A DNA stretch of 20,442 nt from Candidatus Woesearchaeota archaeon (GTDB lineage: Archaea; Nanobdellota; Nanobdellia; SCGC-AAA011-G17; GCA-2687815): NCBI GenBank assembly GCA_964609195.1, contig CAZSRE010000002.1, positions 22,286 through 42,727 on the forward strand. The letters run 5' to 3'. Below, in pieces: positions 806 through 19,068 of the stretch (positions are counted from its first letter, which is position 1; each line of letters begins with the position of its first letter). Both the position numbers and the translations under genes were made by a program. Under the pieces are notes generated by a model that was given only the letters and a program-made list of their open reading frames with translations, did no database searches and was not told where the DNA came from.

Positions 806-852
806 CAGAAAAGCTTTGGCGGAAAAAGCCTTTAGGGAAAAACTTTGAAAAA
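806..852 (+). repeat. Spacer made of three degenerate tandem units GAAAA(A)GC(C)TTT
   Basis: cAGAAAAGCTTTGGC / GGAAAAAGCCTTTAG / GGAAAAACTTTGAAAAA lies directly before the ATG at 853. GGAAAAAGCCTTTAGGGAAAAA (821-842) recurs as GGAAAAAGCCTGGGGAAAAA at 18569-18588 inside a CDS. Confidence 0.6.
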
Positions 853-1263
853 ATGACTAAAAAAGGATACATAAGAACATTGGAAGCGATACTTGCCATA
901 CTTATAATATTTGTATTCATATTTAGTGTGCTGCCACAAGAAGAAGAAAACGTATCTGTACAACAACCAGCTGAGATAAGATTATTGCATCAATCTATGT
1001 TAAGAGAGATCCAGAACAATCAGGCATTTAGAGATGATGTATTGATTAATGATGATAGCAGGATAATAGTTTATGTCGGAGATACGCTCTCCCTAGTTGG
1101 AAGCTATGGCTATCTTGTCTACATACAAGATGCGAATGGTGCGGTGTTTCAACCAGGCACTGGATTGCCAGCAGATAAGAATGTTTATGCTGATAGTGCT
1201 GTTATTGGGAGCAGCCTAAACACTTATAACCCTAAGCTTGTAACTCTTTATATATGGGAATAA
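853..1263 (+). CDS. Small exported protein with a prepilin-like (type IV pilin / class III signal) N-terminus
   Basis: MTKKGYIRTLEAILAILIIFVFIFSVLP has basic residues, then Gly, then LEA plus about 20 hydrophobic residues. The remainder has no motif I recognise. Confidence 0.5.
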   Translation: MTKKGYIRTLEAILAILIIFVFIFSVLPQEEENVSVQQPAEIRLLHQSMLREIQNNQAFRDDVLINDDSRIIVYVGDTLSLVGSYGYLVYIQDANGAVFQPGTGLPADKNVYADSAVIGSSLNTYNPKLVTLYIWE

Positions 1264-1299
1264 GAACCTAGGTTCTTATCATCTCCTGAGGAAAAGAAA

Positions 1300-1743
1300 A
1301 TGTATAGATTCTTGAAGCATACAGCAGATGTATTGTTTGAGGTAGAGGCAAGTAGCCTGAATATGCTTTTTGAAGATGCTGGGAAGGCTGTCATGGCAAC
1401 TATGGCTGAGCTGAAGACTGTAAAACCCAGAGTTAAAAAAGAAATAAAACTAAAAGCAGGTAATATTGAAGACTTGCTTTACGATTTCCTTGCTGAACTG
1501 GTATATTTGAAAGATTCTGAGTTTACGATGTTTTCAGATTTTAATGTTAAGGTAGATGAGAAAAATGTTAGTTTAAGTGCTGAGATAATGGGGGATAAGA
1601 TTGATGCTGTAAAACAAAAGCTTGGAGTAGATGTAAAGGCTGTTACTATGCATATGTTTAGTGTGGAAAAGAAGCTTTTAGGAAAAGCTTCAGCAAAAAC
1701 TAGGAGATACAAGTGGTTTGCAAGAGTGCTTTTGGATGTTTAG
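1300..1743 (+). CDS. Archease (RtcB activator/chaperone)
   Basis: It has the N-terminal FLKHTADVLFEV block (archease HTAD motif) and VKAVTMH plus ..WFARVLLDV at the C-terminus. It is 147 aa and sits immediately upstream of rtcB, which is the conserved pairing. Confidence 0.9.
   Translation: MYRFLKHTADVLFEVEASSLNMLFEDAGKAVMATMAELKTVKPRVKKEIKLKAGNIEDLLYDFLAELVYLKDSEFTMFSDFNVKVDEKNVSLSAEIMGDKIDAVKQKLGVDVKAVTMHMFSVEKKLLGKASAKTRRYKWFARVLLDV
1671..1698 (+). repeat. Hairpin repeat module inside the archease CDS (GAAGCTTTT-agg-AAAAGCTTC + AGCAAAA)
   Basis: A perfect 9-bp stem with a 3-nt loop at 1671-1691 is followed by AGCAAAA. The same module occurs at 6235-6262 and 10062-10088. Here it is translated as KLLGKASAK. 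Confidence 0.75.
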
Positions 1744-1788
1744 AAATATATTTTTGCAAAAGTAATATAAATAGGAGTAAGATTATTT

Positions 1789-3264
1789 ATGCTTATGGAA
1801 GAAAAAAAGCAAGTAATCCCTAAAGAGATTAAACATATTAGTGACGTGGTATGGGAAATTCCAACTAGCTATAAGCAAGGAATGCAGGTGCCAGCTAGAA
1901 TCTATGCAACAAATAAATTGATGCAACAAATGGATGCTGGCGTGTTTGACCAGATAACGAATGTGGCTTGTCTGCCTGGAATTCAGAAGTACGCAATGTG
2001 TATGCCGGATGCTCATTGGGGCTATGGCAGTCCAGTGGGTGGTGTCGCTGCTTTTGATCCGGAAAAAGGCGGGGTAATCTCGCCAGGAATTATCGGTTAT
2101 GACATTAATTGTGGCATGAGATCAATTGTGACAAACCTAACATTGGAAGATGTCAGACCAAAAATAAAGGAGTTAATAGATGCTTTATTTAAGACGGTGC
2201 CTGTAGGAGTTGGTGCAAAAGGAGTTGTTAGAGTAAACAAACAGCAATTTAAACAAGTGATGGAAGATGGGAGTAAATGGTGTGTTGATAATGGTTATGG
2301 TTGGGAAGAAGATTTGCAAAGAACAGAGAGCTATGGTAGAATAGATTGGGCAGATTCTAGTAAAGTTAGTGAAAAAGCTATTTCTCGAGGTATTAATCAA
2401 ATCGGCACATTAGGTAGTGGAAATCACTATCTTGAGATACAGTATGTCAAAGAAGAAGAAATATTTGATAAAAAGGTGGCTGAGAAATTCGGCATTTTTC
2501 CTGGTCAGATCTTGATAATGGTGCATTGTGGATCTAGAGGAATGGGACATCAAGTTGCAACAGATTATATTCAAGTTTTCGATAAGGCTATGAAGAAATA
2601 TAATATTACTATAAAAGACCGCGAATTAAGTTGCGCACCCTTTAATAGTGATGATGGTCAAGATTATTATAGAGCAATGGCATGCTCTGCTAATATGGCT
2701 TTTGCCAATAGGCAAGTAATATTGCATAGAATAAGAGAAGGATTCTCGCAGGTTTTTAAGAAATCTCCAGAAGACTTAGGCATGCATTTGATTTATGACA
2801 CTGCTCATAATGTGGCAAAAATTGAAGAGCATAGAATAGAAGGTAAAAAGAAAAAACTAATCGTTCACAGAAAGGGAGCAACTAGGGCATTCCCCCCAGG
2901 AGATCCGGAATTATCTCCTATATTTAAGGAAATAGGACAAATTTGTGTATTGGGGGGAAGTATGCAGACTGGTAGTGCTTTGTTGTTGGGTATAAAAGAG
3001 GCAGAAGAAACTTTTTATACAACAGCACATGGAAGCGGAAGAACAATGTCAAGGACTAGAGCTAGAAATGAGATAAGGGGAGAAAAGCTGTTAAAAGAAA
3101 TGGAAACTCAGGGAATTTATGTAAAAAGCGTCTCAATGTCTGGATTAGCTGAGGAGGCTGGTTCGGCATATAAGGATTTTGGAGATGTTCTAGATTCTAT
3201 TATCAAAGCTAAATTGAGTAGACCACTTGCGATTCTTCGTCCACTGGGAAATCTAAAGGGTTAA
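1789..3264 (+). CDS. rtcB: RNA-splicing ligase RtcB (3'-phosphate/5'-hydroxyl tRNA ligase)
   Basis: This 491-aa ORF has the RtcB signature blocks in order: CMPDAHWGYG, GYDINCGMR, GSGNHYLEIQ, HCGSRGMGHQ, HGSGR and C-terminal PLGNLKG. It has no intein-sized insertion. An alternative start is the ATG at 1795. Confidence 0.97.
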   Translation: MLMEEKKQVIPKEIKHISDVVWEIPTSYKQGMQVPARIYATNKLMQQMDAGVFDQITNVACLPGIQKYAMCMPDAHWGYGSPVGGVAAFDPEKGGVISPGIIGYDINCGMRSIVTNLTLEDVRPKIKELIDALFKTVPVGVGAKGVVRVNKQQFKQVMEDGSKWCVDNGYGWEEDLQRTESYGRIDWADSSKVSEKAISRGINQIGTLGSGNHYLEIQYVKEEEIFDKKVAEKFGIFPGQILIMVHCGSRGMGHQVATDYIQVFDKAMKKYNITIKDRELSCAPFNSDDGQDYYRAMACSANMAFANRQVILHRIREGFSQVFKKSPEDLGMHLIYDTAHNVAKIEEHRIEGKKKKLIVHRKGATRAFPPGDPELSPIFKEIGQICVLGGSMQTGSALLLGIKEAEETFYTTAHGSGRTMSRTRARNEIRGEKLLKEMETQGIYVKSVSMSGLAEEAGSAYKDFGDVLDSIIKAKLSRPLAILRPLGNLKG

Positions 3265-4711
3265 CGTTGGGTAAATTCCACTTCTTAAAGTCATCATTAA
3301 ACTTTATCTTATCGCTCAGGTTTTTAATTCTCTCAACCTTGTTAATTCGTTCTACCTTTATTATATTTGCAATTTCAAATATTCTTAAAACTTTTTCTAT
3401 ACTCTTATAATGTAGATTAGCCTCTTTGCATAAAGTGTATCTGTTAAATTGCTTTAATCTTATAATTTTTTCTAAAATAACTACAAAATCAATTTTACTA
3501 TTATTTTTGTTTGTCGGAAAAGCTGCTCTTAATTTAGTTTTTGCATCTTCTAATGAGCTAATATATGGATTATTTCCGTAGGTATACCAATATAATCTAT
3601 TATATTTAAATGTTGATTTATTGAAATAATCCAAAAAGCCTTTATTAAAAGAACTTTCAAATGAGAACTCCCCATCCTTTCTGATCCACCTATTTATATT
3701 TAACCCATCTTCTTTTAATACATTTTCTATAAAATCTATTATCTTTTTACTTCTCACATTTAGACTAACTCTACCATCAAATTTAACAGAACCATCAAAT
3801 TGTAAAAACCCATTACAAAATGCCTTCTTTACAATAAAGTCAGAATTTTCAATTATTTCAGGTGGTTTAACATCTTTGCATTTGTATCCTAGAGGGAAAT
3901 TAAAAATATTATTTAAATATCTTCCAATAACCTTATTAGATATAGAAATTATAGATTTATTTCTAGAGTGTTTCACTTTGACATTTATCCCAAATATCTC
4001 TTTTATTAGCCCCTTTAGAAATATCATGTCACTTTTATAGCCATCTACAATACCTATGTAATAACCTAATCTATACTTTATATTATTTCTTTTCAAAAAT
4101 TTGAATATCCCGATTTTTAAATCTTCCCTTACGTTAAAATTGAAGTAATACATATCTTTCAACTTCTTTCTTATTTTGCTTAGATTCAATAGACTAAAAT
4201 TATTTTTTATAAGTTCTTTGTAATCAAGCAATTTGATATGGTCAGTAGATTCTATACTTACTTGCAATCCTAGAGTTCCATCTGCAGCGTGAGCCCCGCA
4301 AAGCTTACTAACATCTTCATCACATAATTTATGAGCTTTGACAATCATTTTAGATTTTGGCATAGGTTTTAAGTAGTCTATAGAGGCAGTTAATTTATTT
4401 AAATAACAATTATACCTCTTTTCATCCTTTTCTTTGATCATAGATAATAATGATTCTATTAGATTTAAATGTATCCACAATGTCTTTCTTCTTAGTATGT
4501 CATTTAAGAGGTCTATAGAGCAATTTAGTTTAAGAGAAATTTCCTTGCATAGTCTAAGTTTCTTGTAATTATATAAAGCCATTACTTCTTTGACTATATT
4601 GTAGAAGTTGTCATATAAGCCAATCCCATTACATACTATCCAAGAGCATGGTCCACTATCTATAAGTGGGTCATGTAGCCTAAATAAATCTAACTGTTTC
4701 ATTCTTTTCAC
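3209..4711 (-). CDS. Free-standing double-motif LAGLIDADG homing-endonuclease-like protein with extra N- and C-terminal helical (HTH-like) regions
   Basis: This is a 500-codon ORF starting at GTG 4711, with the first ATG at 4702. It has two LAGLIDADG-like helices: KLCGAHAADGTLG (about residues 137-149) and KKAFCNGFLQFDGSV (about residues 295-309). The usual FLKGLIKEIFGINVKV block lies between them. The last 18 codons are antisense to the rtcB 3' end. Confidence 0.65.
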   Translation of the reverse strand: MKRMKQLDLFRLHDPLIDSGPCSWIVCNGIGLYDNFYNIVKEVMALYNYKKLRLCKEISLKLNCSIDLLNDILRRKTLWIHLNLIESLLSMIKEKDEKRYNCYLNKLTASIDYLKPMPKSKMIVKAHKLCDEDVSKLCGAHAADGTLGLQVSIESTDHIKLLDYKELIKNNFSLLNLSKIRKKLKDMYYFNFNVREDLKIGIFKFLKRNNIKYRLGYYIGIVDGYKSDMIFLKGLIKEIFGINVKVKHSRNKSIISISNKVIGRYLNNIFNFPLGYKCKDVKPPEIIENSDFIVKKAFCNGFLQFDGSVKFDGRVSLNVRSKKIIDFIENVLKEDGLNINRWIRKDGEFSFESSFNKGFLDYFNKSTFKYNRLYWYTYGNNPYISSLEDAKTKLRAAFPTNKNNSKIDFVVILEKIIRLKQFNRYTLCKEANLHYKSIEKVLRIFEIANIIKVERINKVERIKNLSDKIKFNDDFKKWNLPNVNPLDFPVDEESQVVYSI

Positions 4712-4740
4712 CTTATAATTAATGGATTTTTCTTTATAAA
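3265..4740 (-). mobile_element. Possible homing-endonuclease gene island, compositionally distinct from its flanks
   Basis: I hand-counted G+C in sampled 60-nt lines. Inside the island it is 13-33% (3421, 3661, 3901, 4141). In rtcB it is 37-52% (1981, 2461). No terminal repeats were identified. Confidence 0.3.
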
Positions 4741-4753
4741 GGCTGCGCGCCCG

Positions 4754-4777
4754 TTTGTCTAGATGTCATTTGTCTAG
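4754..4777. promoter_or_regulatory. Operator-like direct repeat TTTGTCTAG x2, 15-nt spacing, in a divergent promoter region
   Basis: TTTGTCTAG occurs at 4754-4762 and 4769-4777. It is preceded by the GC-rich GGCTGCGCGCCCG (4741-4753), which abuts the palindromic TATA TTTATAAA (4733-4740) of the minus-strand gene. A 7-bp inverted repeat ATATGCT/AGCATAT lies at 4788-4805. Confidence 0.35.
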
Positions 4778-4813
4778 CGGCTAGAAAATATGCTTTGTAG
4801 CATATCAAAAATT

Positions 4814-4821
4814 ATTTAAAA
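4814..4821 (+). promoter_or_regulatory. TATA box for the leaderless Zn-ribbon gene
   Basis: ATTTAAAA is centred about 27 nt upstream of the ATG at 4845, with no SD sequence in between. Confidence 0.45.
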
Positions 4822-4844
4822 TGTGCTGTATTAGACTTATATAA

Positions 4845-5057
4845 ATGTACATCAAATGCCCAGTTTGTGGAAGTAGCGAACTAAGAATTGAGTATCATGA
4901 ACTTATGGGTAAGTATGTAATGTGTACTTCATGCGGATTTGATGAAAGCAAGGAATATGACGAGGGTTATGATGAAGAAAAGACCTCTGGAAAAGGAAAA
5001 GGGGGGAGCGTTTACAAAAGAGGCGGTCCAGGAAGGACACAAAAGAGCAGAAAATAA
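4845..5057 (+). CDS. Zn-ribbon miniprotein with a Gly/Lys-rich basic tail
   Basis: CPVCGS..(19 aa)..CTSCG forms a four-Cys ribbon in 70 aa. The tail is GKGKGGSVYKRGGPGRTQKSRK. Confidence 0.6.
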   Translation: MYIKCPVCGSSELRIEYHELMGKYVMCTSCGFDESKEYDEGYDEEKTSGKGKGGSVYKRGGPGRTQKSRK

Positions 5058-5066
5058 GCTTTTTAC

Positions 5067-5127
5067 AACCTTTTAGAAAAACGTTGACGAAAACAAGCCT
5101 TGAGGGAAAAGAAAAGCTTAAGCAAAA
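5067..5127 (+). repeat. Two degenerate copies of the hairpin spacer module
   Basis: One copy is AACcTTTT-ag-AAAAAcGTT (5067-5085). The other is CAAGCcTT..AAGCTT followed by AAGCAAAA (5094-5127). The spacer begins with AAGCTTTTT overlapping the stop codon at 5055-5057. Confidence 0.5.
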
Positions 5128-5184
5128 TACAACTTTTTCATAACCAAAAACTTTATAATATAATTCCAGTCTCTAATTGATGTA

Positions 5185-5814
5185 ATGGGTGGATTTAGCA
5201 AATTTTGGGAAAAGATGTTTGGCAACCTTTTCCGGAAAAAGAGGCAGCTTAAGCTAGGGATTTATGGTCCTCCTAATGGGGGGAAGACTACTCTTGCCAA
5301 TAGGATATGTACTGACTGGCTTGGAGAAGAGATGGGAACTACTTCTAAAATACCACATGAAACCAGACAGATTCAGACTAAGGAGAATATTACTATCAAA
5401 CACAAAAATAATGAGATCAAACTTAACCTTGTAGATACTCCTGGAATAGCAACTAAGATTGATTATGAAGATTTCTTGAAGTTCAAGCTGCCTATGGCTA
5501 AGGCCAAGCAAAGAGCTAAGGAAGCAACTAAAGGAGTTGTTGAGGCTATAAAATGGCTTGATGATATGGATGCTGTTCTTGTCGTGCTTGATTCAACATT
5601 AAATCCCTATAGCCAGGTAAACATTACAATCATAGGAAATCTTGCTGCTAGAAACATTCCAGTGTTGATTGTAGCAAATAAGGTTGATTTAAGGAATGCA
5701 AACATAAAGAAGATTGAGGCAGCTTTCCCGCAATATGAAGTAGTTGGGGTAAGTGCATTAAAAGGGGATAACCTGCAAGAGTTCTATGAGAAATTATTCA
5801 AGGTGGTAAGGTAA
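5185..5814 (+). CDS. Small TRAFAC-class GTP-binding protein
   Basis: The GTPase motifs are in canonical order: G1 GPPNGGKT, G2 region HETR, G3 DTPG, G4 NKVD and G5 SALKG. Confidence 0.85.
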   Translation: MGGFSKFWEKMFGNLFRKKRQLKLGIYGPPNGGKTTLANRICTDWLGEEMGTTSKIPHETRQIQTKENITIKHKNNEIKLNLVDTPGIATKIDYEDFLKFKLPMAKAKQRAKEATKGVVEAIKWLDDMDAVLVVLDSTLNPYSQVNITIIGNLAARNIPVLIVANKVDLRNANIKKIEAAFPQYEVVGVSALKGDNLQEFYEKLFKVVR

Positions 5815-5815
5815 A

Positions 5816-6217
5816 ATGCTGACGCTGCAATTTGTTCCATATGACGAGATTGAGCCATTGGATTCTGATGGAAGAATAAACAAATTGCTGAGCTTGGTAA
5901 AAGATAACAAGATAGTACTGATGCAGGGAAGATTAAAGGTTACTGAGGAAGCGAAGCTCATAGAGACTACGATGAATGAAATTAATGGAAACTTCAAAGG
6001 CATAGAGGTTTGTACAATATACCCTGAGAAAAGAAGGGGCGAATCTATTGGCACTAAAGTGAAGAAGGAAGTGGCAAAGATGCTGCTTGGTAATAGAGAA
6101 GGCTTGACTATAATCGGACCAAGTAGCTTGATAAAGGAAATAAAAAGAGATCCTAATAAGATACAGCTGCTGGCTACTGAGCTTTCAAGAAAAAGAAGAA
6201 GCGTAAGTAAAAAGTAA
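5816..6217 (+). CDS. Conserved archaeal protein, DUF2073/COG3365-like, translationally coupled to the GTPase gene
   Basis: The ATG lies 1 nt after the GTPase stop, with AGGTGG 9 nt upstream. The segment IVLMQGRLKVTEEAKLIETTMNEINGNFKGIEV fits my recollection of DUF2073, which I cannot verify here. Confidence 0.55.
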   Translation: MLTLQFVPYDEIEPLDSDGRINKLLSLVKDNKIVLMQGRLKVTEEAKLIETTMNEINGNFKGIEVCTIYPEKRRGESIGTKVKKEVAKMLLGNREGLTIIGPSSLIKEIKRDPNKIQLLATELSRKRRSVSKK

Positions 6218-6222
6218 AGCCT

Positions 6223-6290
6223 AGAGCTTTCTTAGAAGCTTTTAAAAAAAGCTTCAGCAAAAAGAAACCTCGGAAAGAAAGGCTTAAGAA
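6223..6290 (+). repeat. Composite spacer repeat: module X interrupted by hairpin module Y
   Basis: Module X is AGAGCTTTCTTAGAA ... AAGAAACCTCGGAAAGAAAGGCTTAAG. It is split by GAAGCTTTT-aaa-AAAAGCTTC + AGCAAAA (hairpin at 6235-6255). Uninterrupted X occurs at 10149-10190. Coding versions occur at 17874, 18588 and 18648. Confidence 0.7.
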
Positions 6291-6302
6291 AAAGGAAAAT
6301 AA

Positions 6303-6749
6303 ATGCCCCACCAATGTGTAAGATGCAGCACCATGTATGATGATGGTGCTAGCGAATTGCTTAAAGGCTGCAACTGCGGTAGTAGGTTCTTTTTCTATGT
6401 CAAGAAGAAAGATATTGAAACTGCTAAGCAATTGACTGTTGATCTGAAACCTGAGGAAAGACTGCAGATTGAGAAAGATGTCAAGGAGATAATAGGAGAG
6501 ACTATTGAAGATGATAAGCCAGTTATACTCGACCTGGAGACTATCAGATTGATGAAACCAGGAAAGTATGAGCTTGACATTGTAAACTTGTTTAGAGGAA
6601 AACCTTTGATATACAAGCTTGAGGAAGGCAAGTACTTCATTGACATTGCAGCAAGCTTCAAGAAAGGCTCTTTAGTTACATCTTCTAAGAAAGATGAGGA
6701 CAAAATGAAAACTGAGAAAGCTGATGATGATATTGATGATATCGAATAG
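6303..6749 (+). CDS. Zn-ribbon protein, DUF2072/COG3364-like
   Basis: It has N-terminal CVRCSTMYDDGASELLKGCNCGSRFFFYVKK (C-x2-C ... C-x-C) and an acidic tail DDDIDDIE. The family call is from memory. Confidence 0.55.
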   Translation: MPHQCVRCSTMYDDGASELLKGCNCGSRFFFYVKKKDIETAKQLTVDLKPEERLQIEKDVKEIIGETIEDDKPVILDLETIRLMKPGKYELDIVNLFRGKPLIYKLEEGKYFIDIAASFKKGSLVTSSKKDEDKMKTEKADDDIDDIE

Positions 6750-8624
6750 CTACTTATTAAAAAATTCTTTTATCATGATTTCTGGATTTATCGAAGTTTT
6801 TATTTCCCAGTCTTTAGGGAAGCAGCGTGAGTAGCTTGGCTGGATATATCTCTCATCAATAAATGCAATAATGCCTCGATCTGTTTCTGAGCGGATACAT
6901 CTTCCTGCTGCTTGCAAGGCCTTTATTACTGCAGGCATTATATAGCCATAATCCCAGCCTTTCTGGAACTTCTCATCATAATAACGAATAAGCTCTTGTG
7001 TCTCTAGATTTGGAGTTGCTAATGGCAAGCCAACAATTACTACAGCTTTTAGAAAATCGCCAGGCAAGTCAATCCCTTCTGAAAAACTGCCTGTACTAGT
7101 TGCTAGTAAAATAGCTCCAGAGTCTTTGTAGGATTTGAAGTTTTCAAGTAAAATGTTTCTGTCTGCTTTGCTTGCTCCTTGCTGCTCTAAAAATATTGTC
7201 TTATTTGCTTGTATTTTTAGATTCTCATAAACTCTGTCACGAATGTCATAGCTTGGGAAAAAGACAAGAACATTCCCAGGAATCTGGTTGATTGCATTTA
7301 CTGTTGTATTTGCTATATCCATGTACATCTTATCGCTTCTTGTACTGAACTTAGTTGATGTTTTTGGAACTATGATATTAAGGCGATTATGCTTTGGGAA
7401 TGGATCCTGGAACTCAGCGGTTAATGAATTGTCTAATCCAAGGATGTCTTTGTACATATTAACTGGGGATAATGTGCCTGACATCATTATGGTAGAGTAA
7501 GCTTCCTGGATTACATCTTTAGTTGCAACTGAGGGATCTAGACAATGATATGCCAGTGTTAGGTTAGTATATCCTCTTTTAGACTTTGTTTTTGACAGTA
7601 TCCTGGCAAAACCAAAATCCTCCCCTGTCCAGGCAGACAAGAAAGATGAGATAGCTGCAAGAAAGCTTCGTCTTTTTTCTTCTAATATGATATCTGATGC
7701 TTTATTAAACATGTTTATTATATCTTCATAATAGCCTAGCAATTCTATCTCTTTTATTAAATCTATTTTCTTTATTATTACTTCATTGCCATTCTTGATT
7801 TTCTCAGCAAGCTTTTCAAGAATATTAGATATTTTTTCTGTAGTTGAAATCAATTTTTCATCTTTTAACTGTCTTGCTTCTTTTAATGCTTGAGACATTA
7901 CATAGCTGGAAAGATCTATTGATAACAAATCTCTGATTCTTGATGGAAGGTTATGGGCTTCATCTACTATTATTATGCAATCGCCAAGATTTCTGTTTAT
8001 CTTGTTTAATATGTTGTCCCTGATTGACTTGTTAAATAGATGATAATAGTCTGCTATTACTACCTTTGCGTCTTTTGCCAGAAGAAGAGAAACCTCATAT
8101 GGGCATAGCTTGTGGTTGCTAGAGATATTTATAGAATTTTCCACATCTAATGGGCTTAATTGTGTTAGTGTGTTAAGTGCTTGTCTAGTAGCAATGCTTA
8201 ACTGCCCTTTAGATTTAAGATTAAGATAATACTCACATTCATCTTTTTCTCTCAGGTCACGGCAGTATTCTAAAAACTGGCCAGGTGGAAGGATAGAGGC
8301 ACCAGGCTGCAGGCACATCCAACGTTTTCCTATAAGGTCGACAACGATTGCATTCTTATTGTATTTCTGCTTGATCTTGCGCAGGCTGTCTATTGCTATC
8401 TTATGCTGGGTATGCTTTGAAGTTAAGAAGAAAACCACCTTATTATTGTTTAGCGCATAAGAAAGAGCGACAGGCAATGTAGAGTCTGTCTTTCCTATGC
8501 CTGTAGGAGCGTTAAGAATCAGATTCTGCTTATTGTCGAGAACAGTTTTTACTTTAGTAATCATACTTTCTTGATGGTCTCTAAACTCTGGATGTGGGAA
8601 TAATATAGAATCTTTATCTATCAT
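6750..8624 (-). CDS. xpd: XPD/Rad3-family Fe-S DNA helicase (SF2, DinG-like)
   Basis: It has Walker A NAPTGIGKT and DEAH box VDEAHNL. Four Cys lie between them (RWMC, EYC, DEC, KLCPYE), consistent with a 4Fe-4S domain. Motif VI is QAAGRCIRSETDRG. The ORF is 624 aa. Confidence 0.9.
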   Translation of the reverse strand: MIDKDSILFPHPEFRDHQESMITKVKTVLDNKQNLILNAPTGIGKTDSTLPVALSYALNNNKVVFFLTSKHTQHKIAIDSLRKIKQKYNKNAIVVDLIGKRWMCLQPGASILPPGQFLEYCRDLREKDECEYYLNLKSKGQLSIATRQALNTLTQLSPLDVENSINISSNHKLCPYEVSLLLAKDAKVVIADYYHLFNKSIRDNILNKINRNLGDCIIIVDEAHNLPSRIRDLLSIDLSSYVMSQALKEARQLKDEKLISTTEKISNILEKLAEKIKNGNEVIIKKIDLIKEIELLGYYEDIINMFNKASDIILEEKRRSFLAAISSFLSAWTGEDFGFARILSKTKSKRGYTNLTLAYHCLDPSVATKDVIQEAYSTIMMSGTLSPVNMYKDILGLDNSLTAEFQDPFPKHNRLNIIVPKTSTKFSTRSDKMYMDIANTTVNAINQIPGNVLVFFPSYDIRDRVYENLKIQANKTIFLEQQGASKADRNILLENFKSYKDSGAILLATSTGSFSEGIDLPGDFLKAVVIVGLPLATPNLETQELIRYYDEKFQKGWDYGYIMPAVIKALQAAGRCIRSETDRGIIAFIDERYIQPSYSRCFPKDWEIKTSINPEIMIKEFFNK

Positions 8625-8660
8625 TTTACCTATATTTATATTGGTTACTTATAATTGTTC

Positions 8661-8677
8661 CGAAACCTTTATTTATA
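8661..8677 (+). promoter_or_regulatory. BRE/TATA for the leaderless gene at 8699
   Basis: CGAAA is followed by CCTTTATTTATA. The TATA centre is about 27 nt upstream of the ATG at 8699. Confidence 0.45.
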
Positions 8678-8698
8678 CTTGAGAACAACTATTATTAT

Positions 8699-9265
8699 AT
8701 GAGAAAAGAGGTAAAGCAGGACATATATAATGTTATCAAAAATAGTATTAAAGCGATAAGAAGCAAGAATGTTTCTCTGCTAAAAGATCTTAGCAACCAT
8801 ACAATACATGATGCCAGCATTTACCAGGATGAACATTCTGTAAGCATTGCTGTAGTTATTTATTCATTATATAAGATATTTGAAAGGAGCGATTATAAGA
8901 AGTATAGTGACTGGAACTTATTCTATAGGGGAGTAGTTGATAATCTGAAGAAAGCTTTCTTTGCACTGAAGAAGAATGAGGATGAGCATTATGAAAGGCA
9001 TATTAGGGATATTTTCAACATGATTGACAAGTTAGACAGCAGACTTAGAATCTATGCTAAGGATGTATTTGAACAGGCAAAAGTGCATAGAGCTTCTAGA
9101 CTGCATGAACATGGTGTATCTGTGGGAAGAACAGCAGAGATACTTGGAATTTCCGAATGGGAATTGATGGACTATATTGGAAAAACAGGGATAAGCGATA
9201 ATGACCTTAATATGAGTATGGATGTTAAAGACAGGCTGAAATATGCGAGGAGCTTATTCAAATGA
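8699..9265 (+). CDS. UPF0175/COG2886-like HTH protein (antitoxin-type C-terminus) with a long helical N-terminal extension
   Basis: The C-terminal ASRLHEHGVSVGRTAEILGISEWELMDYIGKTGIS matches the UPF0175 pattern (..klSlgkAAelaGlsrweF.e.L...gI). It overlaps the next gene by 4 nt (ATGA). Confidence 0.55.
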   Translation: MRKEVKQDIYNVIKNSIKAIRSKNVSLLKDLSNHTIHDASIYQDEHSVSIAVVIYSLYKIFERSDYKKYSDWNLFYRGVVDNLKKAFFALKKNEDEHYERHIRDIFNMIDKLDSRLRIYAKDVFEQAKVHRASRLHEHGVSVGRTAEILGISEWELMDYIGKTGISDNDLNMSMDVKDRLKYARSLFK

Positions 9266-9954
9266 AGAGCATTGTCTTTGACACTAGCACTATAATAAGT
9301 ATAGCCACAAATAACTTGCTGCACGTTCTTGAAGATATGAAGAAAAGATTTGGAGGGGAGTTCTATATTGTAGATGCTGTTAGAAGAGAGGCAATTGAAG
9401 TGCCTATGAAAGGCAAGCTCTATAAGCTAGAAGCTATAATGGTAGCAGATTTAGTAAATAGAGGAGTAATTAAAATATATAGCAGTAAAGAACTGGTTGA
9501 TAAAGCAAATAAGATAGCAGAGCTGGCCAACAACATATACAAGGCTAAAGGCAACCACCTTAAATTGATACATTCTGGTGAGGTTGAAAGCCTGGCAATT
9601 GCATGCGATGTAAACGGGACTTTAGCTATAGATGAAAGAACTACAAGACTGCTTATTGAGAATGCTGATCTGCTTGCCAAAATACTAAGGAAAAAATTGC
9701 ATACAAATGTATTCGTAGATAGGAAAAAACTAGCAGAGTTCAAAGACATGGTTTGTAATGTTAATGTAATCAGGAGTGCTGATTTGCTTGTTGTTGCTTA
9801 TGAACTTGGATTGCTAGATAAGTATCTTAACAAGAGCATATTTGCTACAAGCAAGAGAGAGTTACTAGATGCTTTACTATGGGGGGTGAAGCTGAGAGGA
9901 TGCAGCATAAGTGGAGAGGAGATTGATAAAATCATTGAGCTTGAAGGACTGTAA
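9262..9954 (+). CDS. PIN-domain protein, COG2405/DUF3368-like, with a C-terminal extension
   Basis: Acidic PIN residues appear in the expected contexts: IVFDTS (N-terminal Asp), SGEVESLAIA and LAIDERTTR. It also has IVDAVRREAIEV and IRSADLLVVAYELGLL, as in COG2405 proteins that pair with UPF0175. Confidence 0.7.
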   Translation: MKSIVFDTSTIISIATNNLLHVLEDMKKRFGGEFYIVDAVRREAIEVPMKGKLYKLEAIMVADLVNRGVIKIYSSKELVDKANKIAELANNIYKAKGNHLKLIHSGEVESLAIACDVNGTLAIDERTTRLLIENADLLAKILRKKLHTNVFVDRKKLAEFKDMVCNVNVIRSADLLVVAYELGLLDKYLNKSIFATSKRELLDALLWGVKLRGCSISGEEIDKIIELEGL

Positions 9955-9980
9955 ACTTTTAGGAAAAGTTTAACCAAAAA
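9953..9980 (+). repeat. Hairpin spacer module, variant AAACTTTT-agg-AAAAGTTT + AACCAAAA
   Basis: An 8-bp stem at 9953-9971 overlaps the stop codon at 9952-9954. Compared with the 1671 copy, the inner G:C pair is replaced by A:T on both arms. Confidence 0.65.
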
Positions 9981-9987
9981 AGGAAGG

Positions 9988-9995
9988 TTTAAAAG
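9988..9995 (+). promoter_or_regulatory. TATA box for tRNA-Trp
   Basis: TTTAAAAG, preceded by GGAAGG, is centred about 31 nt upstream of tRNA position 1 (10023). Confidence 0.4.
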
Positions 9996-10022
9996 ATGCT
10001 ATTTTCTCGATACTTATGTTAA

Positions 10023-10147
10023 GGGGTCGTAAGCTAACTTGGCAAACTGGCCGCCTCCAGACAAGCTTTTAAAAAAAGCTTGAGCAAAAGGTAAAAAAGG
10101 CTAAAGGAAGAAAGCGGCACTTGTGGGTTCAAATCCTGCCGACCCCA
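10023..10147 (+). tRNA. tRNA-Trp: tRNA-Trp (anticodon CCA) with a 52-nt intron at the canonical 37/38 position
   Basis: The acceptor stem is GGGGTCG/CGACCCC (7 bp). The D arm is AGCT/AACT, with one C-A mismatch and GG in the loop. The anticodon stem is GCCGC (10050-54)/GCGGC (10114-18), with loop C-U-CCA-G..A. The T arm is GTGGG-TTCAAAT-CCTGC and the discriminator is A. The mature length is 73 nt, and CCA is not encoded. Confidence 0.85.
10061..10112 (+). other. tRNA-Trp intron (boundaries approximate)
   Basis: This is the insert between G37 (10060) and A38 (10113). It contains CAAGCTTTT-aaa-AAAAGCTTG + AGCAAAA at 10062-10088. No C/D boxes (RUGAUGA / CUGA) are present. Confidence 0.7.
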
Positions 10148-10148
10148 T

Positions 10149-10238
10149 AGCTTTCTTAGAAAGAAACCTAGGAAAGAAGAAAGAAAGCTTAACCAAAGAA
10201 ATTAAGAGAATTATAAGAAAGCTTAATCAAAACTTTTT
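10149..10238 (+). repeat. Spacer repeat module X plus AAAGCTTAAYCAAA units downstream of the tRNA
   Basis: AGCTTTCTTAGAA (10149-10161) is identical to 6225-6237. AAGAAACCTAGGAAAGAA (10161-10178) matches 6262-6279 at 17 of 18 positions. AAAGCTTAACCAAA and AAAGCTTAATCAAA follow. Confidence 0.65.
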
Positions 10239-12689: not shown

Positions 12690-12691
12690 GC

Positions 12692-12701
12692 TTTTATTTT
12701 T
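12692..12701 (+). terminator. Oligo-T archaeal terminator candidate
   Basis: TTTTATTTTT begins 3 nt after the stop at 12687-12689. Confidence 0.4.
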
Positions 12702-12754
12702 CCCTTTAGATAGCTTTATAACTGTTTTGGTAGCCATGAAATAATTAGTTACTA

Positions 12755-14208: not shown

Positions 14209-14216
14209 TAGTTCTC

Positions 14217-14230
14217 TTTTTTTCTTTTTT
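14217..14230 (+). terminator. Oligo-T terminator (T7-C-T6)
   Basis: TTTTTTTCTTTTTT begins 9 nt after the stop codon at 14206-14208. Oligo-T tracts are the established archaeal termination signal. Confidence 0.6.
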
Positions 14231-14243
14231 ATAATTTTATAAA

Positions 14244-16241: not shown

Positions 16242-16577
16242 ATGAGGAGATTTAACCACAGTAGTAAAAAGTTTGTTACATTCCTATTCTTGTTTATATA
16301 TATTTTAAGTATTGCTAATGCGCAGTCTGAAGACTTTTCTTTAAGCACAAATCAAAGCAGCAGCAGTGTATGCCCGGGCACAACTACGTTGTTTATTACC
16401 GAGATTACAAACACCGGAAGTTCAGATAGTGAGTATACAGTTAATACAGCTGGATCAGCAGGCAAATGGGCATTAAGTGTGCCTACAGGATTTATATTAA
16501 AGCCTGGAGAAAAGAAAAATATGTCACTCCTAAATCAAGTAGCCCTGCTGGAAGCTATACTGTTGATGTTTCTATAA
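16242..16577 (+). CDS. N-terminal fragment (signal peptide plus most of Ig-like repeat 1) of a surface protein split by a frame disruption
   Basis: The signal peptide is FVTFLFLFIYILSIANAQS. The repeat motif ITEITNTGSSDSEYTVNTAGSAGKWALSVPTGFILKPGEKK then breaks off into a nonsense tail after the A5 run at 16515-16519. Confidence 0.7.
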   Translation: MRRFNHSSKKFVTFLFLFIYILSIANAQSEDFSLSTNQSSSSVCPGTTTLFITEITNTGSSDSEYTVNTAGSAGKWALSVPTGFILKPGEKKNMSLLNQVALLEAILLMFL

Positions 16578-18709
16578 GCACAAGCAATGGACTGGTAAAA
16601 AGAGTAAGCTATACTGTTACTGTGAGAGATTGTTATGGTGTTCAAGTTTCTGGAGAACAGGGCAAGCAGATATGTCCTTGTGAATTAACTAAATATGATT
16701 TTGTTGTAAAAAACACAGGAGAGTTCCAGGAGACTTATAGATTAACAGTAAGCGGCAGTGCTGCTGGCTATGTTAAACTTAGCGAGAGTAGTGTTACTTT
16801 GCAGCCTGCAGAAAGCAAGACTGTATTTGCATATGTTCAGAATCTATGCAGCCTGGGAAGTGATGATTTCACAATAACTGCGACTGGCAGAGAGGTTGCA
16901 TCCTACACATCAAGCGTTGAAGTTAACTCCTGTTTCGATTACAGCGTGACGAGTGATAAAGATTTTATTACAATGTGCGACCACACGACAGAGACTTTAC
17001 CGATAAGCATCGGCAACAAGGGCAGTAAATCAAATGAGTACGCCTTAAGTATTGACGGACCGGCTTGGGCGAACCTAGAAAAAACAAGCTTAGTTCTGGG
17101 ATCTGGGCAGAGTGCTAGCATAAATCTTATTCTAAGTCCGGACTACAATGAAGTGGGCAACTTTAACGTCAATTTTAAGGCTGTATCTCAACTTGGAGAG
17201 GTAGAGGCTGTTAAGCCAATAAATGTCAACGTGAAAGAATGCAATAAGGTTGCTGTGGAATTAAAAGAAGAGAATGACAGGATATGTGCAGAGCTAGGAA
17301 AAAGCTACCAAGTTATTGTAAAGAATACTGGAGAGATAAAGAACGATTACAAGATTAGCCTGGATGGACCTGGATGGGCTGGCTTAGATAAGCAGCTTGT
17401 TAGCTTAAATGGTGGGGAAGAAGCTAGCCTAAACCTGAATTTAAAACCAGAGAAGAATGACATTGGAAAAAGGAATATAATAATCAGGACAGGAACATTA
17501 GACCAGGCAATAACCAGCCAGGATGAAATCCAGATAGAAGTTGTATCAAGCGAGAGTTGCTTTAAGCCAGAGCTTAGTCTTGAAAATGATAGGCTTGATA
17601 TAGAAACTGAGAGCAGTGCAACTATTCCGATTACAATTAAGAACTCAGGAGTTGAAGAAGCCAACTATGAACTAAGTGTTAGCGGAGATGCGGCAGGCTT
17701 TTCTCAATTAAACCCTAGCTCACTAAAATTAAACTCTGGAGAGAGCGAGACTGTCTATCTTTATGTTGCGCCAACAGAAGATGTTAATGAAGGACTGCAT
17801 AAGGCAACCATAACTGCCAAATTAGAAAATAGTGCTGTGCTTGACAGCCAGACACTAGATATAAATGTTAAACAGAGCTCTTTAGAAAAGACCTCGGAGA
17901 AACAAGGCTCTGAAGAAACTTCTACAGAAGAAAGCACTGTAGATCAGCAAGATGGAAATCAAACTGGATTGGAAGGTGTCACAGGCGGGGCGGTTGGTGG
18001 ATTTGGAAGAGTTGTAAATGATTATAAATATTATATCATATCTGCATTTGTTATACTGGTTATTATAATCTTATTACTAAGATTCAGAGAGAAAAAACTA
18101 TCTATAGAGCAATGGGAAAAAGAAGTAGAGAACGATAACAATTATGGACAGCGGAATAATGCAGATAACATGAAGTTATTTGGCTGGATAGCTGCCGGCG
18201 TAATTTTGGCAATATTTATAGTCCTCGGATGGATGTATGCAAGCTTTGTAAGAGCATATGTTTATTATATCATAACTGGAATTGTTTTGCTTATTGTAGC
18301 ATTATTCATCTTGAAATATAAAAGTTCTATATTCAATTTCTTTGAGGAAGACAACAAACCTTTTGAAAAAAGCTTTGATGGAAAAGGAAGCGTTGACGGG
18401 AAGAAAAGCGTTGACGGAAAAGAACAAACTCAATCTGGAGTGGCTGAGGTAAAAAAAGCAGTGGAAAGTAAAGCTGAACAACCAAAAACGCAAGTACAAC
18501 CTGGAATTATAGTTCATAAGAGTGAGAGCCCAGATCATAAAGCTGTAAGAGTAGAGCAACAGCCTTTTGGAAAAAGCCTGGGGAAAAAGAGCTCTTTGGA
18601 AAAGACCTCGGAGAAACAAGTAAAAGGCTCGCAAAAAGAAACACAAAAGAGCTCTTTGGAAAAGACCTCGGAGAAAGAAAAAAAGAGCGATGAAGAGCTA
18701 TATTACTAG
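16466..18709 (+). CDS. Main part of the same surface protein: Ig-like (CARDB/COG1470-type) repeats, three TM helices and a Lys/Glu/Ser-rich repeat tail
   Basis: Meaningful coding in this frame starts near 16517 (..KYVTPKSSSPAGSYTVDVSIS completes repeat 1). The ATG at 16466 is an artefact. With the N-terminal fragment there are five repeats of about 100 aa. TM helices are YYIISAFVILVIIILLL, LFGWIAAGVILAIFIVLGW and YYIITGIVLLIVALFIL. The tail carries SSLEKTSEK motifs. Confidence 0.8.
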   Translation: MGIKCAYRIYIKAWRKEKYVTPKSSSPAGSYTVDVSISTSNGLVKRVSYTVTVRDCYGVQVSGEQGKQICPCELTKYDFVVKNTGEFQETYRLTVSGSAAGYVKLSESSVTLQPAESKTVFAYVQNLCSLGSDDFTITATGREVASYTSSVEVNSCFDYSVTSDKDFITMCDHTTETLPISIGNKGSKSNEYALSIDGPAWANLEKTSLVLGSGQSASINLILSPDYNEVGNFNVNFKAVSQLGEVEAVKPINVNVKECNKVAVELKEENDRICAELGKSYQVIVKNTGEIKNDYKISLDGPGWAGLDKQLVSLNGGEEASLNLNLKPEKNDIGKRNIIIRTGTLDQAITSQDEIQIEVVSSESCFKPELSLENDRLDIETESSATIPITIKNSGVEEANYELSVSGDAAGFSQLNPSSLKLNSGESETVYLYVAPTEDVNEGLHKATITAKLENSAVLDSQTLDINVKQSSLEKTSEKQGSEETSTEESTVDQQDGNQTGLEGVTGGAVGGFGRVVNDYKYYIISAFVILVIIILLLRFREKKLSIEQWEKEVENDNNYGQRNNADNMKLFGWIAAGVILAIFIVLGWMYASFVRAYVYYIITGIVLLIVALFILKYKSSIFNFFEEDNKPFEKSFDGKGSVDGKKSVDGKEQTQSGVAEVKKAVESKAEQPKTQVQPGIIVHKSESPDHKAVRVEQQPFGKSLGKKSSLEKTSEKQVKGSQKETQKSSLEKTSEKEKKSDEELYY
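17874..17906 (+). repeat. Coding copy 1 of module X (SSLEKTSEKQ)
   Basis: AGAGCTCTTTAGAAAAGACCTCGGAGAAACAAG matches 18588-18620 at 32 of 33 positions. Confidence 0.85.
18585..18676 (+). repeat. Two perfect 32-nt direct repeats with a 60-nt period (coding copies 2 and 3 of module X)
   Basis: AAAAGAGCTCTTTGGAAAAGACCTCGGAGAAA occurs at 18585-18616 and at 18645-18676. Confidence 0.9.
18680..18709 (+). repeat. Left copy of a 30-nt direct repeat (gene terminus, encodes KKSDEELYY-stop)
   Basis: AAAAAGAGCGATGAAGAGCTATATTACTAG matches 19039-19068 at 27 of 30 positions. Confidence 0.85.
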
Positions 18710-18715
18710 GAGGAT

Positions 18716-19012
18716 ATGATGGAAAACAAACTGAAAATGATGATGGCCGGATTAGGATTGGCAGGATTAGTAAACTTATCTTGTGACCATATTGAAAAAG
18801 AGAATATGTTATTTGAATGCGAGGCTGGAAATGCTAGGGTTAAGATTATAGAAGAAGTAGTGAGCCGGGATTATGATAAAACAAGACTTGAGGTATATGA
18901 CAAAGATGGGAAGAATGTGCTTATTATGCAACAGTATGCAAATGGTTATATCAACTGCAATGATGGAATGAAAAGGATATATCAGGGGGAAGTAGCCAAG
19001 ACTAAAAAATGA
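18716..19012 (+). CDS. Small exported, possibly lipoprotein-like, protein
   Basis: GGAGG at 18709-18713 overlaps the upstream stop codon. ATGs occur at 18716 and 18719, and the 5-nt spacing favours 18719. The hydrophobic N-terminus ends in a Cys (MMMAGLGLAGLVNLSC), which is lipobox-like but not canonical. Confidence 0.55.
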   Translation: MMENKLKMMMAGLGLAGLVNLSCDHIEKENMLFECEAGNARVKIIEEVVSRDYDKTRLEVYDKDGKNVLIMQQYANGYINCNDGMKRIYQGEVAKTKK

Positions 19013-19068
19013 TTATTAGAGAACAGAAACCAGCAGACAAAAAGAGCGATGAAGAGTTATATTATTAA
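19009..19068 (+). CDS. 19-codon mini-ORF preserving the KKSDEELYY tail (speculative)
   Basis: The ATG at 19009-19011 overlaps the TGA at 19010-19012 (ATGA). It translates as MIIREQKPADKKSDEELYY-stop and contains the right copy of the 30-nt repeat (19039-19068). Confidence 0.25.
   Translation: MIIREQKPADKKSDEELYY

Follow-up and report, generated by a model that had tools for sequence, protein, structure and literature searches.

The small dispersed repeats (SDRs) of the Nostocaceae, as Elhai and colleagues are said to have described them in 2008, are hairpin repeats of 21-27 nt that can be nested, whose enzyme is not known and whose mobility was reportedly deduced from presence and absence between relatives. 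MITEs, the inverted-repeat transposable elements of miniature size, mostly measure ~100 bp and more. Mobile GC clusters and palindromic hairpins of fungal and algal organelles colonise spacers, introns and sometimes coding frames, and we know of no such organelle-type clusters from archaea. Transfer RNA (tRNA) introns reportedly transpose in the Thermoproteales, according to work by Fujishima and colleagues in 2010. The Rickettsia palindromic elements (RPEs) are CGTC-tagged and restricted to that genus (PMC3733652), and SDRs are reported from one cyanobacterial family only (PMC5861425). Here we analyse a stretch of 20,442 nt from a Candidatus Woesearchaeota archaeon (the window; contig CAZSRE010000002.1), in which a hairpin with a purine-rich tail recurs on the + strand. 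This hairpin, module H, and its relatives make up most operon-internal spacers of this archaeon. We lean, with some reservation, towards reading them as an ultra-small (~27-30 nt) non-autonomous mobile repeat family, similar to repetitive extragenic palindromic (REP) sequences, SDRs and RPEs, that persists where it is tolerated.

Anatomy, enrichment and covariation of the module

Module H has a stem of 9 bp, N-AAGCTTTT / AAAAGCTT-N', with a purine-rich loop of 3 nt and the 3' tail A-N-C-AAAA, and measures ~27-30 nt (a 21-nt hairpin plus a 7-nt tail). The copies fold as uninterrupted 9-bp hairpins with a 3-nt loop; their 5' flank is variable, and the conserved polar part is the 3' tail. The original prediction, made by a model from the sequence alone, had placed such hairpins at 1671-1691 (GAAGCTTTT-agg-AAAAGCTTC), 6235-6255 and 10062-10082, with a variant built from AAACTTTT/AAAAGTTT at 9953-9971, each 3' arm being followed by AGCAAAA or ACCAAAA. 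These sequences and coordinates are correct, with the variant counted here as 9952-9972. Its claim that the element is polar and co-oriented with the + strand genes also stands: in the window and its syntenic relatives, all 13 full-length matches of a covariance model (R1) with E<0.1 lie on the + strand, in the window and two of the three relatives, with none in the third (L148).

The hairpin AAGCTTTT-N3-AAAAGCTT, allowing at most 3 mismatches, occurs 8 times in the window, always on the + strand, against 0.69 expected from dinucleotide shuffles, and none of 100 shuffles attains the observed count. When the tail is included (AAGCTTTTNNNAAAAGCTTNANCAAAA, at most 4 mismatches), 5 copies are found on the + strand against 0.05 expected: exact at 1672, 6236 and 10063, with two mismatches at 9953 and with four at 5067. 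The - strand matches of the tailed pattern are only the palindromic mirror of the stems. The predicted excess over shuffled controls is thus present in the window. A chance palindrome in AT-rich low-complexity sequence might have been suspected in a window with 36% G+C whose spacers are rich in A and G, but these counts, together with identical 27-mers at more than 140 other loci, refute that explanation and leave it practically no weight.

The differences between copies had been read as compensatory and as a sign of selection on the stem, a reading that holds on 74 distinct archaeal copies, collected without constraint on the closing pair or on two inner arm positions. At the closing pair, 22 copies have CG, 22 have GC, 21 have UA and 6 have AU, and 3 do not pair; the third pair (columns 6-20) is GC in 59, AU in 13 and something else in 2. 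Paired cells amount to 99.1% versus 91.3% in shuffles, slid controls collapse, and 0 of 500 shuffles equal the observed pairing or covariation score. Among the archaeal matches listed, all relatives of the pattern with 2 mismatches are the doubly compensated AAACTTTT/AAAAGTTT form. The covariation therefore indicates that the stem forms in some single-stranded nucleic acid.

A double-stranded palindrome bound by a dimeric protein, be it an operator, a look-alike of the TFB recognition element (BRE) and TATA box or a nucleoid site, would explain the perfect dyad symmetry, and the AAAGCTTTTAAAA form resembles the local BRE/TATA-like consensus GAAAnnTTTATATA at 5146, 8660, 10308 and 12757. However, mirror-symmetric compensatory changes are not expected of independent half-sites, most loops (AGG, GGA, AGA) destroy the TATA box, the tail is polar, copies lie within an open reading frame (ORF) and a tRNA gene, and real promoter-like boxes stand elsewhere in the same spacers. 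We consider such a protein-bound site very improbable, and rejected a BRE/TATA promoter in particular because most loops contain G.

In this lineage the spacers are patchworks built from a set of related units, which we denote H, H', X, X', Y and Y':

H: arms AAGCTTTT / AAAAGCTT, tail NAGC/ACC-AAAA
H': arms AAACTTTT / AAAAGTTT, tail NAWC-AAAA
X: arms GAGCTTTCTT / AAGAAACCTC, tail GGAAAGAAA
X': arms GAGCTCTTT / AAAGACCTC, tail GGAGAAA
Y: arms AACCTTTT / AAAACGTT, tail GACGGAAAA
Y': arms AAGCCTTTT / AAAAGCCTT, tail GAGGGAAAAG

A C.C mismatch, placed three pairs away from the foot of the stem, is kept in X, X', Y and Y', and their closing pairs covary as well (G:C, T:A, A:T). These four units are therefore imperfect palindromes with a polar purine-rich tail.

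Several known classes of element were tried and rejected. A terminator scan calls none of the hairpins, whose tails are A-rich and whose longest T-run, 4-5 nt, lies within the stem; oligo-T tracts follow other genes of the window (12690-12712 and 14209-14235). Of the functions first offered for the repeat, 3'-end formation accordingly finds no support, for want of a U-tract and because two of the four best copies lie away from gene ends, whereas a selfish repeat is favoured, though not as the MITE it had been likened to: a classical MITE was rejected, there being no target-site duplication, no target motif and no terminal repeats beyond the hairpin. Rfam at gathering thresholds, run on the window and 59 loci, returned only tRNA, ribosomal RNA and, elsewhere, two C/D small RNAs (sRNAs), and no known RNA family. 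CRISPR arrays do not fit either, as the copies are dispersed with no unique spacers and the arrays found elsewhere are head-to-tail (28-nt) or have identical 11-nt linkers. A coding repeat is contradicted by frame-shifting indels between hairpins in Acetobacteraceae, by a 28-nt period that is not a multiple of 3, and by the intron copies.

Copies in the window

The copies and their remnants are as follows.

1671-1698, + strand: H (hairpin 1671-1691, tail AGCAAAA), exact pattern, R1 52 bits, in the archease gene
6235-6262, + strand: H inside the loop of a module X in the OapB-OapC spacer, R1 48.5 bits
9952-9979, + strand: H' (TAAACTTTT-agg-AAAAGTTTA + ACCAAAA), R1 47.7 bits
10062-10089, + strand: H at the 5' end of the tRNA-Trp intron, R1 48.2 bits
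5055-5127, + strand: split H, with the 5' arm TAAGCTTTTT at 5055-5064 and the 3' arm and tail at 5112-5127
6224-6279, + strand: X copy 1, split by H, with the 5' arm GAGCTTTCTT at 6224-6233 and the 3' arm and tail AAGAAACCTCGGAAAGAA at 6262-6279
10148-10178, + strand: X copy 2, intact, 1 nt past the tRNA-Trp 3' end, supported by the fold
10184-10197 and 10218-10231, + strand: two 3'-half H modules, AAAGCTTAACCAAA and AAAGCTTAATCAAA
809-853, + strand: degenerate AAAAGC(C)TTT array, upstream of ORF 853-1263
17875-17902, + strand: X' (GAGCTCTTTAGAAAAGACCTCGGAGAAA) within ORF 16466-18709, translated SSLEKTSEK
18356-18676, + strand: module-derived cluster in the C-terminal tail of ORF 16466-18709
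18356-18386, + strand: H-like unit in ORF 16466-18709
18388-18402 and 18406-18420, + strand: Y 3' halves in ORF 16466-18709
18560-18589, + strand: Y'-like unit in ORF 16466-18709
18589-18616 and 18649-18676, + strand: X' in ORF 16466-18709

The repeat had been said to occupy the spacers after genes or after the tRNA end. Two copies contradict this, one lying in the archease gene (1671-1698) and one in the tRNA-Trp intron (10062-10089), and the copies in the 3' part of ORF 16466-18709 had been missed altogether. In that ORF, three identical 28-nt X' units share one frame, each encoding SSLEKTSEK.

Nesting occurs at two places. At 6235-6262 the fold places the H hairpin within the X stem, which keeps its conserved C.C mismatch; the second module, X, and the nested hairpin of the original prediction are confirmed. 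At 5055-5127 the loop of the split H contains a Y (5067-5093) and a half Y' (5095-5111), and the fold pairs 5055-5064 with 5110-5119 (dG -14.1, z -2.3); R1 matches 5064-5096 with an E of 0.039. What had been taken for one imperfect copy at 5094-5119 is the half Y' plus the 3' arm of this split H. R1 also matches 10212-10235 (E 0.094), over the second of the 3'-half H modules.

Two copies supply stop codons: the TAA at 5055-5057 in the split H ends ORF 4845-5057, and the first three bases of the H' at 9952-9979 are the stop codon of ORF 9262-9954. The array at 809-853 probably represents decayed modules; the orthologous spacers of three relatives (L120, L146 and L148) carry well-formed Y', X and H' modules.

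Module-exact differences between relatives

The syntenic contig L120 has genes 74-91% identical to those of the window (DNA) and differs from it by module-sized indels with module-exact borders. Its archease gene is without the 30 nt AAGCTTTTAGGAAAAGCTTCAGCAAAAACT; its orthologue of ORF 9262-9954 continues as GLKDKV*, where the 27-nt H' of the window supplies a TAA; and in its OapB-OapC spacer the X is unbroken, where the window has H in the X loop. The tRNA-Trp exons are identical between the two, with introns that are unrelated in sequence and carry different modules. In L146 and L148 the same spacers carry other module sets, with flanking genes 70-98% identical, and L148 has a full Y' at the site of the half Y' of the window (5095-5111).

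A side observation concerns the start of archease. In L120 and L148 a 40-nt X' module lies just 3' of the ancestral archease ATG (window 1264-1299; L120 4418-4455), and a new ATG follows the tail of that X' (GGAGAAAAAG-ATG). Purine-rich module tails look like local ribosome-binding regions.

An insert in archease and copies in tRNA introns

In archease the module forms an in-frame insert of 30 nt, 1672-1701, which encodes KLLGKASAKT. Only 3 of 68 archease homologues have the 10-aa insert (the window protein, P0001 and P0003), and 65 of the 68 are without it. L120, L148 and all distant archeases have no insert; P0001 and L146 have it. Its position corresponds to the turn of the last beta-hairpin in the solved archease structure PDB 4n2p. 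In L146 the module sits at exactly the same site and is 28/30 identical, versus 71.7% for the surrounding gene. Both differences alter an amino acid, and one breaks a stem pair. A bulge-helix-bulge (BHB) mini-intron in the archease mRNA was considered and rejected, as there are no bulges and no exon-insert pairing and the frame is kept in two lineages. Being kept in frame in two lineages, the insert is translated rather than spliced.

The second intragenic copy lies in a tRNA-Trp(CCA) gene at 10023-10147 (+ strand), whose 52-nt intron spans ~10059-10112 with borders ambiguous by 2 nt. The gene is detected by Rfam (33.8 bits) and by ARAGORN with introns allowed; default ARAGORN finds no tRNA in the window. 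Depending on the border chosen, the H hairpin begins at intron nucleotide 2-4, and the copy at 10062 is cargo of a genuine tRNA intron. The tRNA-Trp intron of Haloferax carries a C/D box sRNA; this was rejected here, with neither RUGAUGA nor CUGA in 10059-10112 and no Rfam snoRNA match. About one quarter of the archaeal matches listed lie in tRNA genes (Trp, His, Arg and Tyr, and D-loop introns), always in sense orientation and with the hairpin beginning at intron nucleotide 1-4. Two tRNA introns (L046 and L027) hold two inverted modules each. At two further loci (L005 6709-6735 and L109 692-718), the module lies between duplicated 5' segments of the adjoining tRNA gene (9- and 16-nt repeats), and in L109 an inverted copy of that tRNA segment comes after the module.

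These copies raise the question of whether the module is the core of a mobile splicing-endonuclease intron, or has spread by way of RNA, from circularised tRNA introns into transcribed DNA in sense orientation. The affinity for intron starts would agree with this, and so would the pairs of inverted modules in two introns, the bias towards sense, a 3' tail rich in A, the occasional long direct repeats (14 nt in L120, 9 nt in L005, 16 nt in L109) and the finding that circular tRNA-Trp introns are general in archaea (PMC12558985). Against it, the module folds as a plain hairpin, without 3-nt bulges; no BHB can be drawn around the archease copy, whose insert is translated in two lineages; no reverse transcriptase and no general target-site duplication were seen; and the copies in bacteria and virus bins cannot be endonuclease-type introns. 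The archaeal BHB intron as such, with two 3-nt bulges and a 4-bp helix, was rejected because each module is a plain uninterrupted hairpin. We regard an intron origin as improbable.

Spread beyond the lineage

An exact-pattern scan with one genome per species found at least 116 loci, and the total of more than 140 loci combines this genome scan with a viral collection. Matches come from metagenome-assembled genomes (MAGs) of Woese-, Pace-, Nano-, Micr-, Aenigm-, Alti- and Iainarchaeota, from Thermococcus/Thermococcaceae and Methanosarcinales, and from repeats of three families in bacteria. One of these is a MITE of ~170 bp in Komagataeibacter, bounded by the terminal inverted repeats AGAGAC.GTTTGAAAAG and containing two internal hairpins, of which one is the 27-mer. 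This MITE has many copies per genome and is found at L008, L020, L034, L037, L053, L060, L065 and other loci of Komagataeibacter swingsii and other Acetobacteraceae. In Poribacteria and Oscillospiraceae the module lies within longer conserved intergenic repeats that flank ordinary genes.

In the viral collection (IMG/VR), 24 contigs carry the module, several of them binned as giant-virus MAGs. The giant-virus-binned contigs show head-to-tail arrays with a 28-nt period and up to 8 units, as well as inverted doublets; Pfam is uninformative for them, and the giant-virus label follows the binning. Copies on these contigs often stand right after stop codons (L133 11485-11707; L139 1239-1321; L125, L126, L140, L142 and L145). 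At seven loci of Thermococcus MAGs (L013, L064, L066, L071, L103, L106 and L117) the module sits in a conserved noncoding block of ~120-350 nt, CTTCCGCCAGCGCTG-hairpin-CACCAAAAGTTTGT, often with tRNA genes a few hundred nt away and with a second module ~500 nt off. Annotated phages and plasmids gave no meaningful match to the module.

The 27-mer is thus shared by DPANN phyla, Thermococcales, giant-virus-binned contigs and repeats of three bacterial families. Outside DPANN most tails read N-ACC-A, so hairpin plus ACCA resembles a tRNA acceptor microhelix. A bolder and, in our judgement, unlikely proposal is that a single inter-domain module (in at least 7 DPANN lineages, Thermococcales, Methanosarcinales, giant-virus-binned contigs and three unrelated bacterial families) is kept identical by shared machinery that copies it or by mimicry of a universal ligand, and also preferentially enters, reshapes or even founds DPANN tRNA introns.

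A proposed mobile repeat family

A selfish repeat is favoured by the module-exact presence and absence, the nesting, the in-frame insertion into ORFs, the residence in tRNA introns, the creation of stop codons, the fast turnover of spacers, the lack of target-site duplications, and a conserved stem with a polar tag. The flanking direct-repeat lengths of 76 copies equal those of a re-paired control, and no conserved flanking target motif is found in the same 76 copies. Spacers differ by whole modules between flanking genes that are 86-98% identical. On this reading the indels between relatives would reflect active mobility and not recombination alone.

As a mechanism, we suggest that one strand could fold into the 9-bp hairpin with its 3' single-stranded A-N-C-AAAA tail, either as single-stranded DNA during replication or transcription, or as RNA. 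By analogy with known systems, an enzyme acting in trans might recognise stem and tail and insert or excise the exact unit without target duplication; the leading candidate would be an HUH/Y1 single-strand transposase of the RAYT or IS200-IS605 kind. Copies would survive where harm is small: between co-transcribed genes, in the last codons of ORFs (where a T-closed hairpin gives TAA), within proteins as in-frame additions to surface loops or disordered tails, inside another module's loop, and in tRNA introns that are spliced out. Half modules such as those at 10184-10197, 10218-10231 and 5095-5111 may then arise by decay, if sequence is deleted between the direct AAGC(TT) repeats that both arms contain.

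Several observations weigh against this explanation. Contigs 99.6-99.96% identical to the window keep the same copies, so that no insertion was caught in the act; their sole difference is one loop base of the 6235 copy. All four relatives have modules in the same spacers. The genes have a mosaic phylogeny: between the window and L148, identity is 95.7% for RtcB (aa) but only 75% for archease (nt), and the closest RtcB of L120 and of L146 is each other (82.5%). Presence and absence could therefore have spread through recombination of alleles, and the conflict between RtcB and archease implies recombination frequent enough that gains and losses are not countable; the polymorphism itself is clear. 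The counts for this organism cover 20 kb, and so do not give a genome-wide copy number. No transposase or other candidate enzyme, RAYT included, is encoded in the window, and none recurs among 150 module-adjacent ORFs at 30 DPANN loci, which are housekeeping genes; the test is weak, since a RAYT-like gene is present only once per genome. Neither do the ORFs between two inverted copies (glgC/glgD-like in L074, ordinary genes in L021) show a transposase linkage. The archease copy is more conserved than its gene, the tRNA-intron copies are uniformly sense, and outside tRNA genes there is a moderate orientation bias, with 13 sense to 5 antisense near gene 3' ends and 4 to 0 deep in ORFs; all of this would also fit a function at the RNA level.

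Several of these points bear on the main rival, namely that the module is a functional RNA cis-element of polycistronic mRNAs, lying at or just past stop codons, that would mark a processing site, block 3'-to-5' decay or bind an RNA-binding protein and has been recruited repeatedly. In this lineage every copy is sense, at other DPANN loci many copies start precisely on a stop codon, and in all of four relatives the operon-internal spacers contain one module or another. The window, L120 and L146 all keep the X at the OapB stop codon, its arms having grown longer on either side, and the archease copy is conserved at synonymous sites. However, ORFs and tRNA introns contain copies too, orthologous sites do not keep the individual modules, one stem pair is broken in the archease copy of L146, and outside the lineage only ~70% of copies are sense and inverted doublets exist. 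There is also no U-tract and no Rfam family, and the 27-mer sits in bacterial MITE-like repeats. We therefore think an RNA cis-element unlikely as the primary explanation. It and a mobile repeat are not mutually exclusive, for which the history of REP sequences offers a parallel, and a mobile hairpin may also have a secondary effect at the RNA level, possibly on mRNA decay or translation.

Gene setting of the window

The gene content of the window is archaeal, it matches contigs of Rifle aquifer groundwater metagenomes, and its archease homologues bear the names of Woesearchaeota, Nanoarchaeota or Pacearchaeota, which marks the organism as a DPANN-type archaeon. The window encodes several Ig-like-domain surface proteins in addition to the following genes.

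246-791: GDYXXLXY protein
1300-1743: archease
1789-3264: RtcB
5185-6749: OapA/B/C, origin-associated trio
6750-8624, - strand: XPD-like helicase

Within 1300-4711, archease and RtcB form a pair, a tRNA ligase with its cofactor. A - strand ORF of 500 aa (3209-4711) overlaps the 3' end of RtcB, and its L120 orthologue matches LAGLIDADG_3; it may be a free-standing homing endonuclease. The adjacent noncoding stretch 4727-4822 is nearly identical between the window and L120, versus adjoining genes only ~88% identical. It holds GTCTAG direct repeats, a hairpin ATATGCTTTGTAGCATAT and a BRE/TATA-like box upstream of a Zn-ribbon gene, and Rfam has no match for it.

The + strand ORFs 16242-16577 and 16466-18709 overlap in different frames near an A-rich run, so that a single surface protein may have been split here by a frameshift or by an error of assembly. 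ORF 18716-19012 is bracketed by a 30-nt direct repeat AAAAAGAGCGATGAAGAGYTATATTAYTAR (18680-18709 and 19039-19068) and looks as if it had been inserted at the 3' end of ORF 16466-18709, with that end duplicated.

Significance

DPANN genomes are small and compact, yet here the operon spacers are filled with interchangeable 27-nt hairpins, and even archease, a conserved enzyme cofactor, and tRNA introns tolerate them. If mobile, the module would to our knowledge rank with the smallest mobile elements on record and form the first family of REP/SDR-like repeats from Archaea, and it would extend the question of how very short DNA copies itself. The family provides a concrete way for proteins to acquire short loops and low-complexity tails and for archaeal tRNA introns to gain or exchange sequence. 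The module is also a strain marker and an annotation trap, as it makes stop codons, hides a split tRNA from default tools and extends ORFs. The puzzles left by this family are the recurrence of one 27-mer, unchanged, in sequence bins that amount to three domains and the affinity for tRNA introns.

Comparison with known systems

Six 16-mers of the module had no match in the literature searched, and nothing relevant was found in literature on DPANN/Woesearchaeota tRNA introns and repeats or on Thermococcales MITE/REP sequences. The module is compared here with systems of related design.

Archaeal and bacterial MITEs are, like the module, non-autonomous, multicopy and polymorphic between strains (PMC10969869). 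They have terminal inverted repeats and a target-site duplication and measure 50-800 bp, whereas the module has 27-30 nt, several-fold less than the MITEs known to us, and only its own stem. The missing target-site duplication is instead as in REP and IS200/IS605 elements. The latter have subterminal imperfect hairpins at both ends, insert 3' of a fixed 4-5-nt target, and carry TnpA/TnpB in full copies; the hairpin and the seamless empty sites of the module fit this pattern, but it has one hairpin per unit and no fixed flanking target, and neither TnpA nor TnpB was found in the window or among the 150 module-adjacent DPANN ORFs.

Like the tRNA introns of Thermoproteales, the modules are related sequences common to different tRNAs, at canonical and noncanonical positions. 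Here, however, the shared unit is only a 27-nt hairpin plus tail, which is common outside tRNAs and is not a BHB. The organellar GC clusters are likewise short hairpin repeats in spacers, introns and in frame, but they are organellar and have other sequences. Closer in one respect are the RPEs, palindromic repeats that lie in frame in protein genes and are translated at structurally tolerant sites (PMC10969869); they are ~100-150 bp, against 30 nt (10 aa) for the archease insert. The SDRs resemble the module in hairpin size, presence and absence between relatives, and nesting. Their sequence is unrelated, and they belong to one family, whereas the module described here crosses phyla and domains.

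The REP sequences and REPINs of bacteria, mobilised by the IS200/IS605-like Y1 transposase RAYT, whose gene the repeats flank in the same genome, are 20-40-nt imperfect palindromes with a conserved polar tag, present in high copy and mostly between genes (PMC3116915, PMC3733652). They share with the module the lack of target-site duplication, the occurrence as singlets, inverted doublets and tandem arrays, the insertion beside or into other copies, and possible secondary effects at the RNA level. They differ in their 5' GTAG or CGTC head, where the module has a 3' A-N-C-AAAA tail, and the module has an archaeal host and copies in ORFs and tRNA introns (2 of the 4 best copies are intragenic). 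Inverted doublets are the main form of REPINs; in the window and its relatives there are only singlets in one orientation, and doublets resembling REPINs occur only in some other DPANN loci, in tRNA introns and in virus-bin contigs. Within the REP/SDR kind, the element described here stands out as new, archaeal and unusually small.

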